From the NCBI GenBank assembly GCA_016926175.1, contig JAFGPA010000012.1:1-49691 (forward strand): a stretch of 49,691 bases of DNA, read 5' to 3'. Of the stretch, positions 31,763 through 41,871 are shown piece after piece. A model generated the notes under the pieces. That model saw only the letters and a program-made list of their open reading frames with translations. It ran no database searches and was not told the DNA's origin. The first letter of the stretch is position 1. The number at the start of each line of letters is the position of its first letter. The position numbers and the translations under genes were made by a program. This DNA comes from Candidatus Micrarchaeota archaeon (GTDB taxonomy: Archaea; Micrarchaeota; Micrarchaeia; Anstonellales; Bilamarchaeaceae).

Positions 31763-32914
31763 ATGAAAATAGCCATCTTCACCGATACTTACCTGCCCCA
31801 GAGAAATGGGGTAGTTTCATATCTTTTGGATGCAACAGGAGAATTATCAAAGAAACATAAGGTAATTATTTTTGCCCCGGGAGGGAAAAAACTGAGGGTT
31901 GAAAGGAAAAATGTGACAACCTACTGGATACCCTCTTCCCCATTTCCATTCTATGAAGGATACAAAATTGCATCAATGAATTACGCCAGGGTAAATGAAT
32001 TGATAAAAAAGGAAATGCCCGACATAATTCATGCCCATGCCCCGGTTGTTCTTGGAGTGCAGGGGATAATATGTGCAAAAAGAAAGGGGATACCGCTTGT
32101 GATCACCCATCACACCCATTTTCCGGATTATGTGCCCTATCTTCTCAATGGAAAACTTCCTGAGGCTTTCGAGGATATCAGCGGATATACTGTCAAGAAG
32201 CTGATCAGGCATGTTTTTACAAATGCCGACGTTGTCACTGCACCAACAAATGAACTTGCCAAAGAGCTGCGTTCATACGGCCTCAACAACGTTGTCCATT
32301 TGCCCAATGGCGTAAAATTAAAAAAGTTCAAAAGAAACCCGAAAAAAGGAAATGCTTTCAGGAAAAAACTCGGCATCCCACAGAACAAAAAGATTATTCT
32401 TTATCTTGGCCGCGTAAGTTTTGAAAAGAAGCTGGATATGCTCCTTCATGCATTCAGCATGATAGACAATGCCTATCTTGTAATTGCCGGAACCGGCCCT
32501 TATCTTGAGGATCTCAAAAAGCTGGCGGAAACGCTTGGTGTGAGGAATGTCCGCTTTACCGGATTCCTGAAGGACATTGTAGAGGCCTATTCCGCAGCAG
32601 ACATTTTTGCCTCGCCTTCAGACACTGAAACTTTTGGGCTGACTTTTGTGGAAGCAATGCAAAGTGAACTGCCTGTGGTGGGAGTCTCGAAGCTTGGAGC
32701 CAGAGAGATAATCCAGAATGGAAAAACAGGCTATCTTGTTACGCCGGGAAAAGCAAGGGCTTTTGCAAGTGCCCTGGAAAAACTCCTGAAAAGCAGCGAT
32801 TTAAGGAAAAAATTCGCGAAAAACGGAAAGGAAAGGGCAAAAGAATACTCCTTAAGCAACAGCATAAAAAAAACCGAAGAGATCTACAAAAGGGTGAGGA
32901 GATCTACACCATAG
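31763..32914 (+). CDS. Glycosyltransferase family 4
   Basis: FTDTYLPQRNGV, YLGRVSFEK and SDTETFGLTFVEAM. Confidence 0.93.
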   Translation: MKIAIFTDTYLPQRNGVVSYLLDATGELSKKHKVIIFAPGGKKLRVERKNVTTYWIPSSPFPFYEGYKIASMNYARVNELIKKEMPDIIHAHAPVVLGVQGIICAKRKGIPLVITHHTHFPDYVPYLLNGKLPEAFEDISGYTVKKLIRHVFTNADVVTAPTNELAKELRSYGLNNVVHLPNGVKLKKFKRNPKKGNAFRKKLGIPQNKKIILYLGRVSFEKKLDMLLHAFSMIDNAYLVIAGTGPYLEDLKKLAETLGVRNVRFTGFLKDIVEAYSAADIFASPSDTETFGLTFVEAMQSELPVVGVSKLGAREIIQNGKTGYLVTPGKARAFASALEKLLKSSDLRKKFAKNGKERAKEYSLSNSIKKTEEIYKRVRRSTP

Positions 32915-34399: not shown

Positions 34400-36970
34400 T
34401 CACATTGACTTGAAATCGATAACCATTTGTTCCAGTTCATCAGGCTTATGGAACAAAAGGGATTTGCTTTCAGATTCCAGCTTCAGGATAAGAGGAGCAA
34501 CAGATGGAGAGGAATTGACAAGCTCTATGAAATTCTGCTTTTCTGCTTCATTCTTGAACAGCATTATTGTTATTCCCTTGCTGATTGTTGAAAGCGCACG
34601 CTTAAGCGAGAGTTTATTGTCTGCATTCCTGTCGTAGAAATGCAGGTACATCTGCTGGCCAACAACTGTGATAACTGAATCGGCTTCTTTGGATTCGTTC
34701 AGGCTTGTAAACGGAACTGCATTGTTGACACAGATGTCGCGGATTCTGCGCATCATTGCAAGATAGTCAATTGTCTTCTTGGTTTTATCCTCCCAGGAGA
34801 CAAGACCATAATAGTTTATGGAAAATTTTACTTTTCCGGCTTTGATAAGCTGGTCAAGAAGCAATTCAACATTGAAATCGGTTATGAATATGGGCCTGCC
34901 CTTATAGAATATATCCTTAAAGCCGTTTTTTATTTCTGCAGTTGTAAGAGGGGTGTTTTCCCATCGGTAGTTCTCATTTACTTTCTGGAAGATGCTGAGA
35001 ATGGTATCTGATGACAGCGGAACCCTTGTTCTGGCAACTGGCGGGAAAACAGGTATATCCAGCCAGTATGAAATTTCTTCCCGCCTTGCAAACAATACAC
35101 CAAGCCCAACGATGCCTCCGGTAAGAATGATCGTGATCCAGAAAACCGGATTGTCAAAAGGACCTTCCGGTCTTGGCAGGGACACAGGAACATTGACCCT
35201 AAGTGCTCCTGATGTGAATTCAAAATTATAATTTCCGTATGGAAGCCTCTGGTTATCTGTTTTTGATCCGACATCAACACGGATAGTATCAACATTGCGG
35301 AACTGATAGGATCCGTATTCTCCCCTGTTGACATTTACTGAAACTTCATTAAGGGTAACAGGGCTGCCGTCCATTGTAACGGCAAAAACATAAGTGGACG
35401 GATTTGCAGCAGCAGGGCCTTTGTATGTGATGTCTATTGAAACTACTTTCATGTAGGTCTGTGCATGAACGACATTGGAAGAATCCATAAGCCTGACCAT
35501 GTATTCCCCGCGGTCAAGGTCAACGGAAATATCAAATGATCTTTCAGACTGGGTATTTACCGGTCCCTGGGGGAACAGCTCGACTTCAGTGCCGTTCTCA
35601 TCAGTAATTTTAAGGAACATGTCAAGGGATGCGGGATTTTGCTCTTTCAGCACTGCATTGAGCCTTACGGATTCTGCCGTGATGCTTGTTGGAACAACCT
35701 TCACCCCACCCTGTATAAACAGCTGGTTTTCATCGAATTTTTCAACAAAAGTATAAAGAGTCTGGCGTACCGGAACATTGGATGCTTCTGATTCTCCAAT
35801 GAATTCAACTTTTATTGTAGCCTTTGGAGCTGTTCTCTCAAAAGAGAACGGCTCGGTATAGAAATAGGATTTTCCCGAATATGCCGTCTGGTTAGCAATG
35901 ACATATGTTTTTGATTCAGCTATGGGTTCGGCCCAAGGCGTCTCGAATATTAGTTTGGATATGTCATCTGCTGCACTTTTCGCGTCTCTTTTCCATCCGC
36001 CGTCAAGAGTCTGCGGAACAAAGATGAATGCTCCATTGCCTCTCTTAACAGAGCTTATTGCTCCATATATGAGCTTGCTTTCCCAGCCTCCGCTTCCAGT
36101 TGCCCGGTAAAGCGGCTGGAACAAATTAATATCTGAAGATGGCTGGAGAGGCGTGTTCCTGTCGAACGTCACCGGAAGGGATGCAATCTGAGCCTGTGAA
36201 AGGGAATTTACAAGAGTTCCGTTCAGCACCCTGTCAAAGGGCTGCCCCATGTAAATCAGAACTACGCCTTTTTCTGCAAGGGCAGTCATATTCAAAAGGC
36301 TCCCATAACCAAGCAGCTCTTTTGGAACTGCACCGCTTGGAACTATGATTATTGCGCCCTGTGGAAGGGATTCGAGCTCAGTCACGGTAATTTCATTGAG
36401 GAGTATGTTTCTTGTTTCAAGGTTTGCGCGCAGATGCACAGTGAAATTGGTATAAGTTGTTGCTTCAACCCTCTGGCTGTTCAACAGGAAAATCTCGGAA
36501 GGGATTTTTTCCCTGTATGGTGTAAGAACTATGCTGTAGTTGTCTATGTTCCTGGCGCCATATTCCACAAAAACAGCGCCCGTATATTCAGGGAAACCAA
36601 GCCTTCCGGAACTCAGGAGTTCGCTGTCATGAAGAACATTGTCTATTAATGGCTTGTCCATAGGCTCCTGGAAAACTTCAGGGGCCGTATGGCCCAGGGA
36701 AACAGTTATGTAAAGCAGACCCACGCCCAGTATGATCATGGCAATAAGCAGTGCTGCTCCGATAACTGCAAAATTGAATCCGCCCTGCGGTTTTTCAGGT
36801 TCCGCTTCTTTTTTCCCTGCTTTCGGCTTGAGGAATACCTTGATTGCATCCTTTATTCTTTCAACTGGAGGCCGGTCAATCATTTTATAGTGGGAGACAT
36901 ATTCATACTTGCGCTTAACATCGAACTTGTAAATTTTCTTCCTGATCTTAACATTACCTAGGTCCGCCAT
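34400..36970 (-). CDS. Large two-TM membrane protein with big extracellular domain (VirB4-like operon gene 5)
   Basis: TM near residues 65-92 and near 610-630, with about 500 aa beta-rich region between and a cytoplasmic tail; TAATG coupling to the upstream gene. Confidence 0.8.
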   Translation of the reverse strand: MADLGNVKIRKKIYKFDVKRKYEYVSHYKMIDRPPVERIKDAIKVFLKPKAGKKEAEPEKPQGGFNFAVIGAALLIAMIILGVGLLYITVSLGHTAPEVFQEPMDKPLIDNVLHDSELLSSGRLGFPEYTGAVFVEYGARNIDNYSIVLTPYREKIPSEIFLLNSQRVEATTYTNFTVHLRANLETRNILLNEITVTELESLPQGAIIIVPSGAVPKELLGYGSLLNMTALAEKGVVLIYMGQPFDRVLNGTLVNSLSQAQIASLPVTFDRNTPLQPSSDINLFQPLYRATGSGGWESKLIYGAISSVKRGNGAFIFVPQTLDGGWKRDAKSAADDISKLIFETPWAEPIAESKTYVIANQTAYSGKSYFYTEPFSFERTAPKATIKVEFIGESEASNVPVRQTLYTFVEKFDENQLFIQGGVKVVPTSITAESVRLNAVLKEQNPASLDMFLKITDENGTEVELFPQGPVNTQSERSFDISVDLDRGEYMVRLMDSSNVVHAQTYMKVVSIDITYKGPAAANPSTYVFAVTMDGSPVTLNEVSVNVNRGEYGSYQFRNVDTIRVDVGSKTDNQRLPYGNYNFEFTSGALRVNVPVSLPRPEGPFDNPVFWITIILTGGIVGLGVLFARREEISYWLDIPVFPPVARTRVPLSSDTILSIFQKVNENYRWENTPLTTAEIKNGFKDIFYKGRPIFITDFNVELLLDQLIKAGKVKFSINYYGLVSWEDKTKKTIDYLAMMRRIRDICVNNAVPFTSLNESKEADSVITVVGQQMYLHFYDRNADNKLSLKRALSTISKGITIMLFKNEAEKQNFIELVNSSPSVAPLILKLESESKSLLFHKPDELEQMVIDFKSM

Positions 36971-37710
36971 TATCTTACCACTTCTATATAACCTTCATTT
37001 ACAAGGCGGTTTAGTGCATCTTCTATTTTTGCCTCGGAAACTTTGTAAAGTTTGGAAAATTCTATTATGTTTATTGAGCCGTTGTGCTCGCTGATCCATT
37101 CCTGAAGCTTTGATTTCAGAACATCATCAGAAAGACCTTCCAGTTCCTTTACACGGAGATTTAATTCGTCGTTTGCGGATTTGAGTTCATAGTTGCTTGT
37201 TGAAAGAGCCTGGCTCTGCTCGGTAAGCCTCTCCACTTTCTTGTTAAGGTCCTTGACTTCCTTCTTAAGTGAATCATACTGGGTATAGAGCTTTGTGTAT
37301 TCCATGGTAACTGAATTGGAAAGATCAGTAATTGCACTCTCTATGAGCTGATAAAGAGTCTTATTCTCAACCCGGTATGAGTCTTCAATAAGCGAGAATA
37401 TGTTGAGCAGATACCTGATAACGTCAACCCTTCTTTTTCTCGGGCTGATTTCGGTGGGAATAGTATATGTAACTTCAACTTCATCTTCCTTGATCTTGGC
37501 AATTGAAAAGAGATATGGATTCTTGTCAATGTCGCGGCTCTCGACATATATAACGTTGAGAACATCCTTTTCAGGGGCTATTTCAAGAAAAGATATTGAC
37601 CTTAGGACAGATGCAAGATCCTTGATTTTTCCGTTCACTAATTTTCCTTTGATCTTAAATCCGTCAACTTGTGGAGGATGGGTTTCTTCCTGTTGTGTTG
37701 GTCCTGCCAT
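36970..37710 (-). CDS. Coiled-coil protein with C-terminal winged-helix-like domain (operon gene 4)
   Basis: Heptad region YDSLKKEV...LRVKELE and C-terminal IEDALNRLVNEGYI; GGTGA RBS and TAATG overlap. Confidence 0.8.
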   Translation of the reverse strand: MAGPTQQEETHPPQVDGFKIKGKLVNGKIKDLASVLRSISFLEIAPEKDVLNVIYVESRDIDKNPYLFSIAKIKEDEVEVTYTIPTEISPRKRRVDVIRYLLNIFSLIEDSYRVENKTLYQLIESAITDLSNSVTMEYTKLYTQYDSLKKEVKDLNKKVERLTEQSQALSTSNYELKSANDELNLRVKELEGLSDDVLKSKLQEWISEHNGSINIIEFSKLYKVSEAKIEDALNRLVNEGYIEVVR

Positions 37711-38114
37711 TATTTCACCTTCTTTTTCCCTTTTGGGGATTTTCCGATAGTCTTTGGCTCGTCCCACTGCAATGCTGGGGAGTATTTAAACAATGGAAGC
37801 ACCAAAACAAATCCTGATATTATAAATGCCGATATTAGGGCCCACAGGTCAATTCTTCCTGAATATACCATGGAAAAAAGTGCAAGGATCATTATCAAAC
37901 CTGCAAAAACGCTTACAAAGAGCATGCTTCTTTCAAAGGATTTTCTTCTTTTCAGGTGTTCTTTTACATGGTCCTCGGAAACGTAGAGTTCATTCATCTG
38001 CGCTATGCCAAAAATCTTTTTGATTTTTCTGATGGCGTAGATTATCCTGTCTTCCTTTACAGGAATTGCACTTTTACCATCGACATTTTCCTGGGTATAG
38101 ATGCAGACTTTCAT
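37710..38114 (-). CDS. Small two-TM membrane protein (operon gene 3)
   Basis: Two C-terminal hydrophobic helices and a basic tail. Confidence 0.75.
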   Translation of the reverse strand: MKVCIYTQENVDGKSAIPVKEDRIIYAIRKIKKIFGIAQMNELYVSEDHVKEHLKRRKSFERSMLFVSVFAGLIMILALFSMVYSGRIDLWALISAFIISGFVLVLPLFKYSPALQWDEPKTIGKSPKGKKKVK

Positions 38115-38115
38115 T

Positions 38116-39708
38116 CTAATCCTCCAGAACTACCTGGCTAATTTCGCGGCCGACTCCGCCGCTCTTTTTCAGATCAACTTTGCCGAATATGTTGATTATG
38201 GTAACATCATCAACACCTGAATCCTTCAGGAAATCAGATATGTTTCTTCTTGCAACACCATATCTTTCAAGGGTGATCACCAATGAAATAACATCCATTC
38301 TTCTGTTGCCCTTGTCAAACTGCTTTGAAAGGGTTTCTATTCTGTCGTCTGCTAATCCAAATTGCCTTAATTTTCTTCTGAAATCTTCTTTCAGGAATGA
38401 CACGCTTCTTGCCATGGAAATATCCCTCCTTTGTTTTTCAGTAAGCACTTCTTTAAGGTCGAGGAAGTACTCCTTGCTTGGCTCTTCCCCTTCAATCTTT
38501 TCAAGAAGGAAAGTTGACGGGTACGGAGTCTGGGTTGTGAAGGACATGTTGACAGCCGCCTGGCCTACACCAAGCCTGCTGATCTCTTCACGCATAAATG
38601 GACTGAAGTTCAGGGATGACTGAAGATAATCCAGGAACCTTGCAAATTTCACTTTGAGTATAAATGTTGTTCCGACGTTGGAGAAGATTGCCTCGCTGAT
38701 ATCGGTAGGGTTCTGGGATGCAATGATCATGCCAAAGTTGTATTTACGGCCCTCACGAACAATCATAACGGCATCGGAATTGTCCTCTTTTCCGATTTTC
38801 CATGCTTCGTCCAGAACAATCAGAAGCCTGAGTCCTGACTGGCGGGCGCCTTCAATTGCACCGCTTATCCTCATTCTTTCCTTGATAAACTGCAGCAGCG
38901 TCAAAGCAGCCAGGGCACGCATTGTTTCATCAGGAAGGCCCACAAGGTCAAGGTCAACAAGGCCAGATGTTACAAGCCTTTCCAGGTCAACGGTACTTTG
39001 CTGTGCAAAGAAATCCTCCCCTGGTTTGGTAAACTGCCTCAGGCGGTAAATCGCGTTTTCCAGCTCTGCCGGGAATTCATAGGATCCCATCTGAGCCTGT
39101 TCGGTAAGTACTCTCACAACATCTTTCAGTGTCGGGGGGAGGATGGGCTTTCCCAGTTCATCCTTCTGTTCCCTCTGATCCATCCTGAACTTGTTTTCAA
39201 GATAGGTCTTTTCAATGGCCTGTTCTGTAAGCCTTCTTTGTTCCGGGTATTGGGAGATGTCTGTAAGAAGTTCCAGGGTTCTCATGATCTGCTTGATACG
39301 GTCATAGGGCTTCATGCCGCCCAGGTCAAGAAGATTGAGGTAGGAACCGCGGCCGAGCGAAACCACCTTGCCGCCTGTCTGTTTTACCCAATCCTTGTAT
39401 TCTCCTGCCCAGTCAATGATAAGTGCATTGGAATTCCAGACAAATGCCGCCCTCAAAAGAAAAGTCTTGATGAAGTAGGACTTTCCGGAACCTGAAATTC
39501 CGCACACTGCTATGTGAGGGTTTGCAACATTCTCATGGGTCCAGTAAAAAGGAGCATTGAATATTTTGGTTCTTCCGATGTAGACAGAATTGGTCGGATC
39601 TGCAAAAACTATCTCCAGGGGAGGCTCCGGCGGATGTACCAGTATATTCCTCTTTGAAATTGCAACATTAGGCAATTTGCCCAACCTAAGCCGTCCTGCT
39701 AATGCCAT
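38116..39708 (-). CDS. VirB4/TraC/HerA-like secretion ATPase (operon gene 2)
   Basis: NPHIAVCGISGSGKS, IIDWAGEY, IVLDEAW, REGRKY..G.IIASQ.P.D, plus an extra C-terminal helical domain. Confidence 0.88.
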   Translation of the reverse strand: MALAGRLRLGKLPNVAISKRNILVHPPEPPLEIVFADPTNSVYIGRTKIFNAPFYWTHENVANPHIAVCGISGSGKSYFIKTFLLRAAFVWNSNALIIDWAGEYKDWVKQTGGKVVSLGRGSYLNLLDLGGMKPYDRIKQIMRTLELLTDISQYPEQRRLTEQAIEKTYLENKFRMDQREQKDELGKPILPPTLKDVVRVLTEQAQMGSYEFPAELENAIYRLRQFTKPGEDFFAQQSTVDLERLVTSGLVDLDLVGLPDETMRALAALTLLQFIKERMRISGAIEGARQSGLRLLIVLDEAWKIGKEDNSDAVMIVREGRKYNFGMIIASQNPTDISEAIFSNVGTTFILKVKFARFLDYLQSSLNFSPFMREEISRLGVGQAAVNMSFTTQTPYPSTFLLEKIEGEEPSKEYFLDLKEVLTEKQRRDISMARSVSFLKEDFRRKLRQFGLADDRIETLSKQFDKGNRRMDVISLVITLERYGVARRNISDFLKDSGVDDVTIINIFGKVDLKKSGGVGREISQVVLED

Positions 39709-39710
39709 TT

Positions 39711-40523
39711 TCAGATCACGCTCTCTTCAAGCTCCTGTGGGGATGTCGGGAAGAACCTCTCCCATTCAAAGCATTTAAGCATTTCATCGCCGCTAAGCTT
39801 TACAACCTCGATATTAAGGGCATTTGCAAGCACTGTTCTCAACTCATTGGACTGGGATCTTACAGCTGCAATTGCAGCATCCTTGCTCATTCCAACAGCA
39901 GTTGTCTGGGCATAGGCAATAATCCCCATAGGCTTTACCCCTTTTATAAGACGGGTGAGCTGGCTGTCCCATACGGCAGCTTCACGCTCGTATTTGTCTA
40001 TCTTAAGAACGTCAGCCTGCGCCTTGTCTCTTTCACGTGCAAGCCTGAGCTGCGCTTCAGCGCGCTTTGTTTCAATCATCTTTCTTTTTTCACCAACGTC
40101 TTCCACGTAGAGCATGTATGCGATTTTGGTTACATATTTCAGGTTTGATATTGCACGTTCAAAAAACTGGCTGTATGCAATGTTTTCCTCTCCTGTTTTT
40201 TCCGCCGCTGATTCGAATATTTTAATTCCCATAAAGGCAGATGCATAAAAAACGCCATTCCCTGATTTAACAATAACATCCTGGCTGGGAGGAATTTCAA
40301 AACCTTCATCGCTCATCATTATGATTTTGGTCCGCTGGGTGATAAGAGGGACAATGATATATCCGTATTTCCAGAACAAAACTCCCATAACCGATCCCAT
40401 GAAAGCAATAATGCCTCCAATTAAACCGAATATGCCGCCCCCCATGAAAGCAAAGAGAGCCCCTAAAACCCCGACAAAAATTGAGGCGAACATGTAATTC
40501 TTAGAACCTGCAGTGGCTACCAT
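39711..40523 (-). CDS. Two-TM membrane protein with coiled coil, resembling a separated VirB4 N-terminal part (operon gene 1)
   Basis: Two N-terminal TMs, then alpha/beta region, coiled coil and L...L.G.E.L end. Confidence 0.7.
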   Translation of the reverse strand: MVATAGSKNYMFASIFVGVLGALFAFMGGGIFGLIGGIIAFMGSVMGVLFWKYGYIIVPLITQRTKIIMMSDEGFEIPPSQDVIVKSGNGVFYASAFMGIKIFESAAEKTGEENIAYSQFFERAISNLKYVTKIAYMLYVEDVGEKRKMIETKRAEAQLRLARERDKAQADVLKIDKYEREAAVWDSQLTRLIKGVKPMGIIAYAQTTAVGMSKDAAIAAVRSQSNELRTVLANALNIEVVKLSGDEMLKCFEWERFFPTSPQELEESVI

Positions 40524-40563
40524 AGTCTATCCCTCAGTAAATATCAAAGGAATGATATTAAAA

Positions 40564-41871
40564 TCAATCCCTTACCGCATCCTCCACTATCTTCTGAGCT
40601 TTTCCAATATAGGTGGAATAATCAAAAAGCGTGTTTGTTGTTTTTTCATCCAGAATCTTGCTTTCTATAACAAGTTCTTTCAGATGCCGGTTGTTTTTAT
40701 AGGCTTCCTGCGCCAGGGTCCTGACAAGCTCATGCGCCTCCTGCCTCCCCATGCCCTTCTCCGTGAGGGCAATCATCAGGCGTTCGGCCATGATAAGGCC
40801 GTTTGTTAGTTCAAGATTTTTCCTGATGTTTTTGTCATTGAACTCCAGACCGGAAAGGATTCTGGAAATTTCAAGGATCATGTAATGGACGCACAGAAAA
40901 GTTTCGCCGAAAATTGCGCGCTCATTTGCACTGTTTGTCAAATCCCTTTCATGCTCCAGGGCAATGTTCTCCAGTGCAGTAATCAGGTTTGCCCGGGGCA
41001 GTCTGGCAAGCGAGCAGACGCGCTCGCTTTTATGCGGATTTCTTTTATGGGGCATTGTTGATGAACCCACCTGCGATTTGCCGAACGCCTCTGAAATTTC
41101 AAGGATTTCCGTTCTCTGAAGATTCCTGATTTCCTTGGCTATTTTTTCTATGGAAGCTGCCAGAATCGCAAGATCTGCAATCACTTCGGCATGGCGGTCT
41201 CTTTGCACCACCTGGCTGGAAACCTTTGCAGGCGAAAGGCCAAGCTCTTTCATCACAAGCTCCTGTATTTCAGGACCCTGCTCACCAAAGGTTGCCATAG
41301 TGCCCACGGCTCCGGACATTTTGCCTACTGCAATCCGTTTTTTTGATTCCAGAAGTCTTTCCAGCGAGCGCAGGATATCCTGGTAGTAAAGGGCAAATTT
41401 CATGCCATAGGTTGTTGGTACGGCGTGCTGGCCATGGGTTCTTCCCATGCACACTTTGCTTTTGTTTTCCTTTGCCAGTTTTTTCAGAATGGCTGCAAGC
41501 TTCCTCCCGTCATCCTCAATAATTGCAATTGCATCCATGAAAATCAGGGCTGTCGCAGTATCTTCAATATCATAGGAAGTTGAACCAAGATGGACATATT
41601 TGCCAGCATCGCCTGACTGTTCTGAGAGGGCCTTCACCATTGCCATCAGATCATGATGGATTTCATCCTCTATCTCCTTAACTCTGGAAAGCTGCACTTT
41701 CTTTGCGCCTTGCTCTATTTTGGCAGGGGCATCGGGGGGGACGTTGCCAAGCTTTGCATGGGCTTTTGCCAGGGCAACTTCAACCTCCATCCATTTCCGG
41801 ATTTTGGTGTCATCCTCGAAAACCTTATTCATCCTGGTAGCATAACGCTCTTCAAAAGGAGAAATCGACAT
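40564..41871 (-). CDS. purB: Adenylosuccinate lyase
   Basis: HHD, H.G.TS.D, GRTHGQHA.PTT and GSSTMPHKRNP. Confidence 0.97.
   Translation of the reverse strand: MSISPFEERYATRMNKVFEDDTKIRKWMEVEVALAKAHAKLGNVPPDAPAKIEQGAKKVQLSRVKEIEDEIHHDLMAMVKALSEQSGDAGKYVHLGSTSYDIEDTATALIFMDAIAIIEDDGRKLAAILKKLAKENKSKVCMGRTHGQHAVPTTYGMKFALYYQDILRSLERLLESKKRIAVGKMSGAVGTMATFGEQGPEIQELVMKELGLSPAKVSSQVVQRDRHAEVIADLAILAASIEKIAKEIRNLQRTEILEISEAFGKSQVGSSTMPHKRNPHKSERVCSLARLPRANLITALENIALEHERDLTNSANERAIFGETFLCVHYMILEISRILSGLEFNDKNIRKNLELTNGLIMAERLMIALTEKGMGRQEAHELVRTLAQEAYKNNRHLKELVIESKILDEKTTNTLFDYSTYIGKAQKIVEDAVRD

Follow-up and report, generated by a model that had tools for sequence, protein, structure and literature searches.

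Introduction

In Sulfolobales, the Ced system (CedA/CedE, CedA1/A2 and CedB/CedD) is a chromosomal, domesticated type IV secretion system (T4SS) that has neither a relaxase nor VirD4. According to the accessible text of two reports, its ATPases each carry only part of the VirB4 N-terminal domain, and both VirB6-like paralogues and VirB2-like pilins belong to it (PMC11868833; PMC9905601). The Ted system of Thermoproteales (TedA, TedB and TedC) is presented in the accessible part of the latter report as a pilin with a signal sequence and two helices, encoded beside VirB6-like and VirB4-like genes (PMC9905601). Patescibacteria (candidate phyla radiation, CPR) are ultrasmall episymbionts in which, as far as the accessible text of two sources goes, most genomes carry a chromosomal T4SS with several VirB2-like pilins and usually no relaxase, and this system is reportedly essential for growth on the host (PMC12102498; PMC12857230). 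Here we describe a five-gene operon, W1 to W5 in order of transcription, on a 49,691-nt stretch of DNA (contig JAFGPA010000012.1) of a Candidatus Micrarchaeota archaeon; this whole stretch is called the window throughout.

The operon bears on the question of how archaea of the DPANN group whose genomes measure about 1 Mb acquire the things that they are unable to make themselves. A first-pass annotation of the window had proposed that the five genes encode a minimal complex with an architecture of its own. We arrive at a different picture, in which the operon probably forms the motor-proximal module of a T4SS-derived machine that is chromosomal, inherited vertically, related to Ced and Ted and conserved in most Micrarchaeota. 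The complex is neither minimal nor stand-alone, because VirB6-like genes and a pilin gene reside elsewhere in the same genome or upstream of the operon at related loci; the operon makes up the ATPase-proximal part of a large system.

Results

W1 and W2 probably form a split VirB4-like motor

W2 carries the motifs GISGSGKS (the Walker A motif, residues 70-77), DEAW, REGRK and SQ, all as initially annotated, and it passes the Pfam thresholds for DUF87 (51.8 bits; cut-off 23.2), AAA_10 (42.5; 27.5) and P-loop_TraG (30.9; 25.8). With its Walker A motif as early as residue 70, W2 has no room for a HerA-type N-terminal barrel or for an N-terminal domain of its own.

A candidate for the missing domain is encoded immediately upstream. 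W1 has no match in Pfam or NCBIfam, and a profile search of the PDB returned coiled-coil or chance matches only. An AlphaFold2 (AF2) model built from a 31-sequence alignment (predicted local distance difference test, pLDDT, 82.0) shows helices at residues 5-27 and 31-65, followed by an alpha/beta domain. Two transmembrane (TM) segments had been assigned to W1; hydropathy places one segment above threshold, and the model shows two N-terminal helices. When this model was compared with the PDB by Foldseek, ranks 1-11 were all entries of the R388 T4SS that contain TrwK/VirB4 (best E 2.7e-3, prob 1.00). A second structural aligner places W1 residues ~71-270 on TrwK ~219-383, with 8rtd_g as the best row (W1 73-270 on 221-383 of that chain; Z 12.5, root-mean-square deviation, rmsd, 2.8, 151 residues aligned), followed by four further TrwK rows (Z 9.4-9.7) and by unrelated rows at Z 8.2 or less. 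The match is confined to the latter half of the VirB4 N-terminal domain, and this part of VirB4 is thus present in the operon, though on a separate polypeptide.

A search among 1.84 billion representative proteins recovered few relatives, 83 at E <=1e-30 and 1888 at E <=1e-3. Close homologues of W2 are labelled Micrarchaeota, Micrarchaeia or Bilamarchaeaceae by their sources. Beyond Micrarchaea, the relatives include fused forms of 813-913 aa, in which the ATPase begins near residue 285, and three of these (860-913 aa) fit the CedB model almost end to end (126-148 bits). Names were available for two of the 10 relatives checked, one from Thermoproteota and one from Micrarchaeota. When the W1 family was aligned by hhalign with a fused relative of 892 aa, it matched residues 83-253 of that protein, just before the ATPase domain (prob 86.5, E 4.6e-6). 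Because W1 matches both TrwK and the region that precedes the ATPase in fused CedB-like relatives, we read W1 and W2 as one CedB/VirB4-like protein divided in two. These matches establish homology with a split VirB4/CedB-type motor that has an N-terminal membrane hairpin. The position of the hairpin suggests that it may be VirB3-like, in which case the two proteins would together make up a VirB3-VirB4/CedB-like motor. Three complex prediction runs that combined W2 1-430 with W1 60-270 scored 0.71, 0.00 and 0.02, which is evidence neither for nor against docking.

Profile comparisons favour a place for W2 on the VirB4/CedB side of the FtsK-HerA superfamily and not with repair HerA. All 30 members of the ATPase family match CedB, with a best E of 1.4e-29, ahead of 7e-17 for HerA, and VirB4-like and CedB models score best. 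The same genome carries a separate HerA gene whose four best matches are HerA models, the best at 165 bits, compared to 37-50 bits for W2 (NF040819, 36.9, cut-off 970; NF040937, 50.2, cut-off 800). By these scores, and in having no N-terminal barrel, W2 does not qualify as a HerA repair helicase. In a quick LG+G4 tree of 31 rows and 517 columns, whose references were three VirB4, three FtsK/TraG-type and one HerA sequence, and no CedB, CedD or TedB, the Micrarchaeal orthologues and paralogues form one clade of 13 rows (Shimodaira-Hasegawa-like approximate likelihood ratio test, SH-aLRT, 99).

W2 ends in a helical domain of ~100 aa, which in families f7-f9 is a separate open reading frame (ORF); such a separate ORF is seen at nine loci. 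Inteins with an Intein_splicing match and a LAGLIDADG endonuclease interrupt some ATPase orthologues, and they do so at two distinct sites. One site, after the Walker A region, is occupied in an orthologue at L043 and in P0123. The other, near residue 297 and just before Walker B, is occupied in P0122, and G115 shows a matching split at 297.

Two of the three fused forms that fit the CedB model come from metagenome-assembled genomes of Nitrosopumilales/Thaumarchaeota. At these two loci (L059 and L060), a polytopic gene of ~290 aa precedes a fused CedB-like ATPase of 861 or 913 aa, and at L059 a 99-aa gene with two TM segments stands directly before the polytopic gene. This module looks like an undescribed Ced/Ted-like system. 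In alignment A6, which covers the fused family of 813-913 aa and draws on metagenome proteins, not on L059 or L060, the consensus after the ATPase shows winged-helix-like and nuclease-like motifs.

VirB6-like arrays and pilins accompany the motor

From genomes of 12 families of the phylum, we took the region surrounding the best ATPase match, which gave 20 loci in total. The ATPase, W4 and W5 occur in the same order at all 20 loci, a W1-like gene is present at 19, and W3 is found at 16 by BLAST and at two more as an aligned ORF in the same place. Because this gene order recurs across the fetched loci, the five-gene arrangement is far beyond chance, and the synteny check shows that the partners are syntenic in other genomes of the phylum.

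At eight of these loci, all in families f7, f8 and f9, the region directly upstream of the operon contains two W1-like genes together with a tandem series of 4-6 polytopic genes (300-620 aa). The polytopic genes find their best match in other genomes at the corresponding array position, a pattern of positional orthology. Extension of the eight loci upstream revealed, at five of them, one or two small ORFs (104-143 aa) immediately preceding the array; their products each have a signal peptide and two hydrophobic helices. Among seven such ORFs scanned, one (at L062) passes the Pfam model TrbC/VirB2 (PF04956; 32.6, cut-off 27.9) and two more reach 24.5-25.3 with T4SS_pilin (PF18895), below its cut-off of 26.6. 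A VirB2/TrbC pilin is therefore recognizable at a related locus, and the copy in the window's own genome is linked to it by homology only.

Two features support a possible correspondence of the polytopic proteins to VirB6. First, their genes are placed between pilin and VirB4 genes at related loci, which fits VirB6. Second, hhalign detects homology between the first two helices of the polytopic proteins and the pilins (prob 87.9, E 3.2e-6), and homology of the same kind is described for CedA/CedA1 and VirB6/VirB2 in the accessible text of PMC9905601. The proteins have no Pfam match, and a profile search of the PDB with the VirB6-like family gave only coiled-coil or chance matches. An AF2 model of the C20 member (43 sequences; pLDDT 82.9) yields weak Foldseek rows (8rtd_L, E 0.48), and with the second structural aligner TrwI/VirB6 supplies the two best rows and the only full-length alignments. 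An hhalign comparison of the family with a 293-aa polytopic neighbour of the Thaumarchaeal ATPases is weak (prob 14, E 0.0019). We call these proteins VirB6-like, while the case for family membership is inconclusive.

The window's own genome (G000; 1.05 Mb in 39 contigs, numbered C, 93% complete) has two further paralogous ATPase modules, making three in all. The C20 ATPase is 46% identical to W2 by BLASTP (54% over a shorter stretch), and the C4 ATPase is 39% identical by BLASTP (44% in another comparison). VirB6-like ORFs number 14, with six each on C2 and C19 and one each on C20 and C4, and a pilin homologue resides on C30. The first-pass annotation had seen no polytopic VirB6/CedA-like gene and no pilin. 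Both statements are correct for the window and the neighbourhood of the operon, respectively, but not for the genome, and in families f7-f9 the polytopic genes are adjacent to the operon. Its third negative statement extends further than it claimed: not only nearby but in the whole 93%-complete assembly there is no match to a relaxase (PF03432) or a tyrosine integrase (PF00589), and none to VirD4 (PF02534), where coupling protein and relaxase were sought with PF02534 and PF03432 only.

Several other genes near these parts deserve mention. The C30 pilin gene is flanked by a gene for a PMT_2-type (GT-C) glycosyltransferase, at 41.2 bits, and by one for a KaiC-like ATPase, at 47.6 bits; the former may act in pilin or envelope glycosylation. 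Multi-TM proteins of ~500 aa with an N-terminal motif like that of PMT_2-type glycosyltransferases are encoded near pilins at L063, L064 and L067. A conserved protein of ~245 aa with 6-7 TM segments and no Pfam match recurs beside pilin and VirB6-like arrays, has a single homologue in the window's genome, and may have a part in pilin processing or assembly. The second gene of the C19 array codes for two tandem pilin-like N-terminal stretches (tblastn E to 3e-8) and, judged from its sequence, looks like a pilin-VirB6 fusion or intermediate. An 84-aa ORF on C29 with three hydrophobic segments is below threshold for T4SS_pilin (20.2 versus 26.6) and may be a further divergent pilin. Finally, large secreted proteins (1034 to ~1490 aa) are encoded after several modules, including those at L043, L050 and L051, where they lie downstream of W5. 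The two in the window's genome have no BLAST similarity to each other or to the large ORFs of the 20 loci, and so these proteins were not counted as system parts. One of the large secreted proteins has weak Ig-like matches, and the group may comprise variable adhesins.

W3, W4 and W5 are constant partners of the motor

W3 has TM segments at 65-83 and 90-108, an N-terminal, cytoplasmic zinc-ribbon-like domain and a basic tail, and it matches no Pfam or NCBIfam family. Across 19 aligned orthologues, the consensus has a CxxC motif close to the N-terminus and another conserved Cys behind 'LVV'; some sequences add one more Cys two positions later. The window copy keeps the first Cys only. These cysteines are kept in most families and lost in this genus (the window and L034), where the domain may work without metal.

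In W4, a cytoplasmic protein, the N-terminal domain is conserved and is followed by a coiled coil and, at the C-terminus, by a winged-helix-like domain (23 sequences aligned, mean column identity 44%). The winged helix-turn-helix assignment made earlier for this C-terminus corresponds to weak matches only (TrmB, 16.3 bits at 231-264; GntR, 14.7), the remaining matches being of coiled-coil type. A profile search of the PDB likewise gave coiled coils and one winged-helix entry, from archaeal ESCRT-III (2xvc_A, E 0.0011). Both other ATPase modules of the genome include a W4 paralogue.

W5 has a basic N-terminus and TM segments at 68-86 and 609-627, so that hydropathy agrees with the two segments initially assigned to this protein, as it does for W3. 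Charge and hydropathy together suggest that the ~520 aa between the segments are extracellular and that the C-terminal domain is cytoplasmic. This C-terminal domain (~230 aa) shows the densest conservation in an alignment of 22 sequences. No match of weight to W5 was found in Pfam, NCBIfam, PDB profiles or the ESM Atlas; the best ESM Atlas value for residues 630-856, 0.85 to unnamed clusters, is a lead only. The C20 module includes a 704-aa paralogue (A5). No nuclease family is matched by W1 or by W3-W5 in Pfam or NCBIfam, where no search was aimed at NurA specifically.

The system is conserved in most of the phylum

Among 121 genomes of the phylum, which include the window's own and the unpublished genome G029, the ATPase is present in 113, the pilin profile matches in 110 and the VirB6-like profile in 111 (112, 109 and 110 of 120 when G029 is set aside). 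The eight genomes that lack the ATPase (families f10, f11, f14 and f16) also lack pilin and VirB6-like matches, as do two genomes with a weak ATPase match only, and one genome has the ATPase and no pilin match. We regard this co-distribution as a pattern and not as a statistic, because related genomes are not independent. VirB6-like matches range from 6 to 18 per genome, with 6-9 in most genomes of f7-f9 and 12-18 in most of the other families, and pilin matches range from 1 to 12. The ATPase orthologues in these genomes stand at 50-91% identity. A tblastn search of plasmids with W2 returned 209 records, all below 60% identity and at 23-27% in the listed rows, and thus no close plasmid relative. 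Outside the phylum, the survey consisted of the representative-protein search and one genome scan. The view that the cluster is resident is strengthened by its orthologues in 113 of the 121 genomes, its conserved gene order and the lack of integrase, relaxase and VirD4 matches in the assembly.

Genomic setting of the operon

The five ORFs, read from the sequence and the ORF list, occupy 34400-40523 on the minus strand. On the coding strand, W1 and W2 are joined by TGA-AA-ATG (a 2-nt gap) and W2 and W3 by TAG-A-ATG (a 1-nt gap), while W3/W4 and W4/W5 overlap as TAATG, the former by use of the ATG at 37710. The tight packing described by the first-pass annotation is thus exact, and gene identities on both sides confirm its housekeeping flanks: adenylosuccinate lyase upstream, and NUDIX, TFE-alpha, DUF460 and a GT4 glycosyltransferase downstream, with aIF2-gamma also among these flanking genes. 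The GT4 glycosyltransferase gene recurs inside the fetched region at 10 of the 20 related loci, all from short-form families. The short intergenic region before W1 contains sequences that make it a possible operon promoter. The GC content of the operon resembles that of the rest of the window and is unremarkable. Two metatranscriptome runs from the same study contained 0 contigs on the operon, a result without bearing on expression either way. Coordinates are collected in Table 1.

Table 1. Locations of the operon genes, of other system parts in the same genome (G000) and of neighbouring or recurrent features. Positions refer to the window unless a contig (C) or related locus (L) is named.
Feature	Location	Strand	Size or content
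W1	39711-40523	-	270 aa
W2	38116-39708	-	530 aa
W3	37710-38114	-	134 aa
W4	36970-37710	-	246 aa from ATG at 37710; 265 aa for the ORF to the upstream GTG at 37767
W5	34400-36970	-	856 aa
Intergenic region upstream of W1	40524-40563	-	40 nt; TATA-box-like TTTTAATA; GAGGGA stretch before ATG
Adenylosuccinate lyase	40564-41871		
GT4 glycosyltransferase	31763-32914	+	1.5 kb downstream of W5
C20 module	C20		polytopic (358 aa), W1-like, ATPase, W4-like, W5-like, 1034-aa secreted protein
C4 module	C4		polytopic (361 aa), W1-like, ATPase, W4-like
C2 array	C2 14120-21501		six polytopic genes, then 1411-aa secreted protein
C19 array	C19 17368-24934		six polytopic genes
Second gene of C19 array	C19 18645-20159 (= L074:5645-7159)		504 aa
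Pilin homologue	C30 51204-51596		tied to related-locus pilins by homology, tblastn E 7.6e-12
Neighbours of C30 pilin	L073:7664-9079 (= G000 C30 51664-53079); L073:6448-7152		
Three-segment ORF	C29 1325-1579		84 aa
Large secreted proteins	C2 9884-14119; C20 14220-17324		
Separate HerA gene	C2 2091-3581		
TrbC/VirB2 pilin	L062:2464-2895		
6-7-TM protein	L061:8771-9502; L062:1652-2386; L063:6609-7373; L066:9119-9868; L067:6142-6876; C34 4567-5310		~245 aa
ATPase orthologue with intein	L043:7985-11128	-	
Thaumarchaeal polytopic gene and fused ATPase	L059:8667-12577; L060:8927-12727		

Discussion

A possible mechanism can be assembled from these parts. A W2 hexamer would be held at the membrane by W1 and would rest on VirB6-like paralogues, 5-6 distinct ones per array, that build a platform or channel; in this genome, the motor would dock with VirB6-like proteins encoded on other contigs. 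The motor might extract VirB2-type pilins from the membrane and so build a pilus or conduit; it might also, or instead, move a polymer through the single membrane and the S-layer. The lineage-specific proteins W3, as a zinc-ribbon membrane anchor, W4 and W5 could provide the cytoplasmic substrate- or DNA-handling and envelope-spanning adaptors.

A number of observations weigh against a T4SS-derived machine. The NCBIfam scores of W2 fall far below cut-off for the CD1110 VirB4-like model (71.3 bits; 325), CedB (NF041017; 63.4, 700), CedD (NF053655; 63.2, 600) and VirB4_CagE (TIGR00929; 34.1, 643), and a Mycoplasma-type VirB4 model is also below cut-off at 62 bits. By plain sequence, the best PDB matches of W2 are HerA-type chains (8wiv_A, 7.1e-11; 4d2i_A, 1.3e-10), with VirB4 (4ag5_A) behind them at 4.4e-5, and PADLOC models for HerA and DndH score ~60 bits, like the VirB4-like models. 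At the deep nodes of the ATPase tree, HerA, TraC, TcpF, pNOB8 VirB4-like and the Micrarchaeal clade form a long-branch polytomy, and such a tree therefore cannot choose between VirB4 and HerA. The TrwI/VirB6 alignments of the polytopic model (7o3v_G, Z 8.7, rmsd 6.0, 236 of 261 residues aligned; 8rtd_L, Z 8.1) lie within the noise range for helical proteins, and a wide search independent of Foldseek returned only helical hairpins (Z <=9.2), with no VirB6 in the top 50. The C30 pilin falls below every Pfam pilin threshold, and no T4SS counterpart has been demonstrated for W3, W4 or W5. Lastly, the pilus and the import of DNA or host-derived material are predictions from gene content.

If the machine is indeed T4SS-derived, its most likely job, at slightly less than even odds, is to import or exchange material on contact, DNA being the foremost candidate. 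This function is favoured because the nearest relatives are CedB-like and no relaxase or coupling protein was found, as in Ced and Ted. The system is a good candidate for the uptake or exchange of material between these symbionts and other cells, and a role between symbiont and host seems plausible. A bolder proposal, which we put forward as speculation, sees in the machine an archaeal equivalent of the essential Patescibacterial T4SS and a core symbiosis organelle of Micrarchaeota. Five or six VirB6 paralogues would then form a hetero-oligomeric stalk or channel, compared to the single-species VirB6 of plasmid systems; the split VirB3-VirB4 motor would raise a VirB2-type pilus, and W3-W5 would feed host-derived DNA or other polymers inward. 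If true, it would be the physical conduit of DPANN-host exchange sought since the first images of archaeal Richmond Mine acidophilic nanoorganisms (ARMAN).

The same T4SS-derived machine might have nothing to do with nucleic acid transfer and instead act as an adhesive pilus, or as a conduit at host contacts through which proteins, lipids or metabolites pass, a role also proposed for the Patescibacterial T4SS. We consider this the main alternative, possible if on balance unlikely. The numerous pilin matches in some genomes would suit such a role, as would the large, non-conserved secreted proteins that adjoin several modules and the PMT-type glycosyltransferase beside the pilin of the window's genome. 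The accessible text of PMC12857230 adds that the Patescibacterial T4SS, which comes with a pilin cluster, is essential for epibiotic growth. The features that speak for nucleic acids instead are not decisive: the motor's closest relatives are CedB-like and Ced imports DNA (accessible text of PMC11868833), while the winged-helix-like character of W4 and possibly W5, and the zinc ribbon of W3, suit nucleic-acid handling.

It is far less probable that W2 is a membrane-anchored FtsK/HerA-type pump for the cell's own chromosome, active in segregation, division or repair, with the pilin and polytopic families as unrelated neighbours. The ATPase is unusually conserved, and in some genomes it carries inteins at catalytic motifs; inteins often sit in highly conserved proteins. 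Winged-helix and zinc-ribbon features in the cytoplasmic partners, and the HerA-type chains that lead the plain-sequence matches, would also agree with such a pump. It is difficult to reconcile, however, with a genome that has a separate HerA, with a W1 that adopts the VirB4 N-terminal fold and not the HerA barrel, and with pilin and VirB6-like families that share the phyletic gaps of the ATPase and are contiguous with it at eight of 20 loci.

We give still less credence to an integrated conjugative element, or the remnant of one, whose mobile T4SS exports its own DNA. VirB4-like ATPases, VirB2 pilins and VirB6 do constitute the core of conjugation, the genome has three paralogous ATPase modules, and archaeal conjugative plasmids also lack recognizable relaxases, according to the accessible text of PMC12857230. 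Against this stand the orthologues in 113 of 121 genomes, in conserved order and at 50-91% identity, which are monophyletic with their paralogues within the phylum. Integrase, relaxase and VirD4 were not found in the assembly, the flanks are housekeeping genes with unremarkable GC content nearby, and plasmid relatives reach at most ~27% identity in the listed rows of the 209 records, all of which are below 60%. A HerA-based anti-virus defence scarcely merits consideration, since the ~60-bit matches of W2 to PADLOC HerA, DndH and mad8 are not accompanied by any PADLOC match of W1, W3 or W5 and only by a coiled-coil-level match of W4 (E ~1e-3), and since a near-universal, syntenic and vertical distribution is, as a matter of general knowledge, atypical of defence islands.

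We therefore return to a T4SS-derived machine of the Ced/Ted kind and consider what it would mean. The window's genome devotes five loci to this one machine, with 14 VirB6-like genes, three VirB4-like modules and several pilins, and most of the phylum does likewise. Such investment across most of the phylum marks the machine as central to Micrarchaeal biology. The pilin, the W1/W2 motor and the W5 ectodomain offer testable targets in the single cultivated Micrarchaeon co-culture. For T4SS biology, the system offers a naturally split VirB4, an extreme radiation of VirB6 and three obligatory partners.

In the literature searched, a scope that did not extend to subscription-journal papers or supplementary tables, no account of a Micrarchaeal T4SS turned up. 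The accessible text of PMC10266531, PMC12102498, PMC9905601, PMC11420986, PMC12857230, PMC10354927 and bioRxiv 10.64898/2026.05.20.726742 does not describe one. The words 'secretion', 'pili' and 'HerA' do not occur in the main text of PMC8975820, whose supplementary expression tables were outside the search. DPANN is not mentioned in the accessible archaeal section of a 2025 T4SS review (PMC12857230).

Comparison with known systems

No described system matches the cluster gene for gene, which agrees with the earlier impression of novelty. The closest likeness is to Ced, which is also a domesticated chromosomal T4SS without relaxase or VirD4, and whose CedB model is fitted nearly full length by the fused relatives of W2. 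Sulfolobales also provide a precedent, in the accessible text of PMC11868833, for a VirB4 N-terminal domain divided between proteins and for VirB6 paralogues. The Micrarchaeal system differs in several respects. First, W2 lies outside the CedB and CedD families by score (63 bits versus 700 and 600). Second, the N-terminal domain resides on a separate, membrane-anchored polypeptide. Third, the VirB6-like paralogues number 5-6 per array, with 6-18 matches per genome, and W3-W5 are without a known Ced counterpart. Micrarchaeal pilins share with Ted the layout of a signal and two helices, a comparison made by description and not by sequence, and the two systems differ in gene number and in the extra partners found here.

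The Patescibacterial T4SS differs in being of the mating-pair-formation FATA type (MPF-FATA), with VirB1-, VirB8- and VirD4-like parts; in the Micrarchaeal assembly VirD4 was not found, and no search was made for VirB1 or VirB8. Because the nearest relatives of our system are archaeal and CedB-like, its ancestry is separate from that of the Patescibacterial one. The R388 system (TrwM/VirB3, TrwK/VirB4, TrwI/VirB6) is the structural template for W1, through TrwK, and the polytopic model aligns with TrwI over its full length. Sequence identity to R388 is 7-15%, however, and its VirB4 is one chain where the Micrarchaeal motor has two. VirB5, VirB7-VirB11 and outer-membrane parts are not expected in a monoderm archaeon, and no search for them was made. 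The rvh T4SS of Rickettsiales, as known in part from PMC2653234 and in part from general background, resembles our system in belonging to an obligate symbiont with a reduced genome and in having a chromosomal location and tandem VirB6 paralogues, but it is bacterial, diderm and effector-secreting, and there is no direct relation.

HerA-NurA shares the ATPase superfamily (DUF87), and HerA chains are the best plain-sequence PDB matches of W2, but HerA is encoded separately in this genome, and W2 has no N-terminal barrel and is partnered by membrane proteins. The SPEARE giant proteins of Nanohaloarchaeota link a VirB4/TraG-like ATPase to a large surface protein with a proposed action on the host, according to the accessible text of PMC10266531; there the ATPase is fused to a giant Ig-repeat protein, a fusion not seen here, where no homology to it was detected either.

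The Micrarchaeal system probably works like Ced, Ted and the Patescibacterial T4SS, yet its scores fall so far short of each cut-off that it stands outside the curated CedB, CedD, VirB4 and HerA families. Its novelty lies in a motor that is split, in VirB6-like genes that have radiated in tandem with positional orthology, in three constant partners without a known family, and in a phylum-wide chromosomal setting within DPANN.

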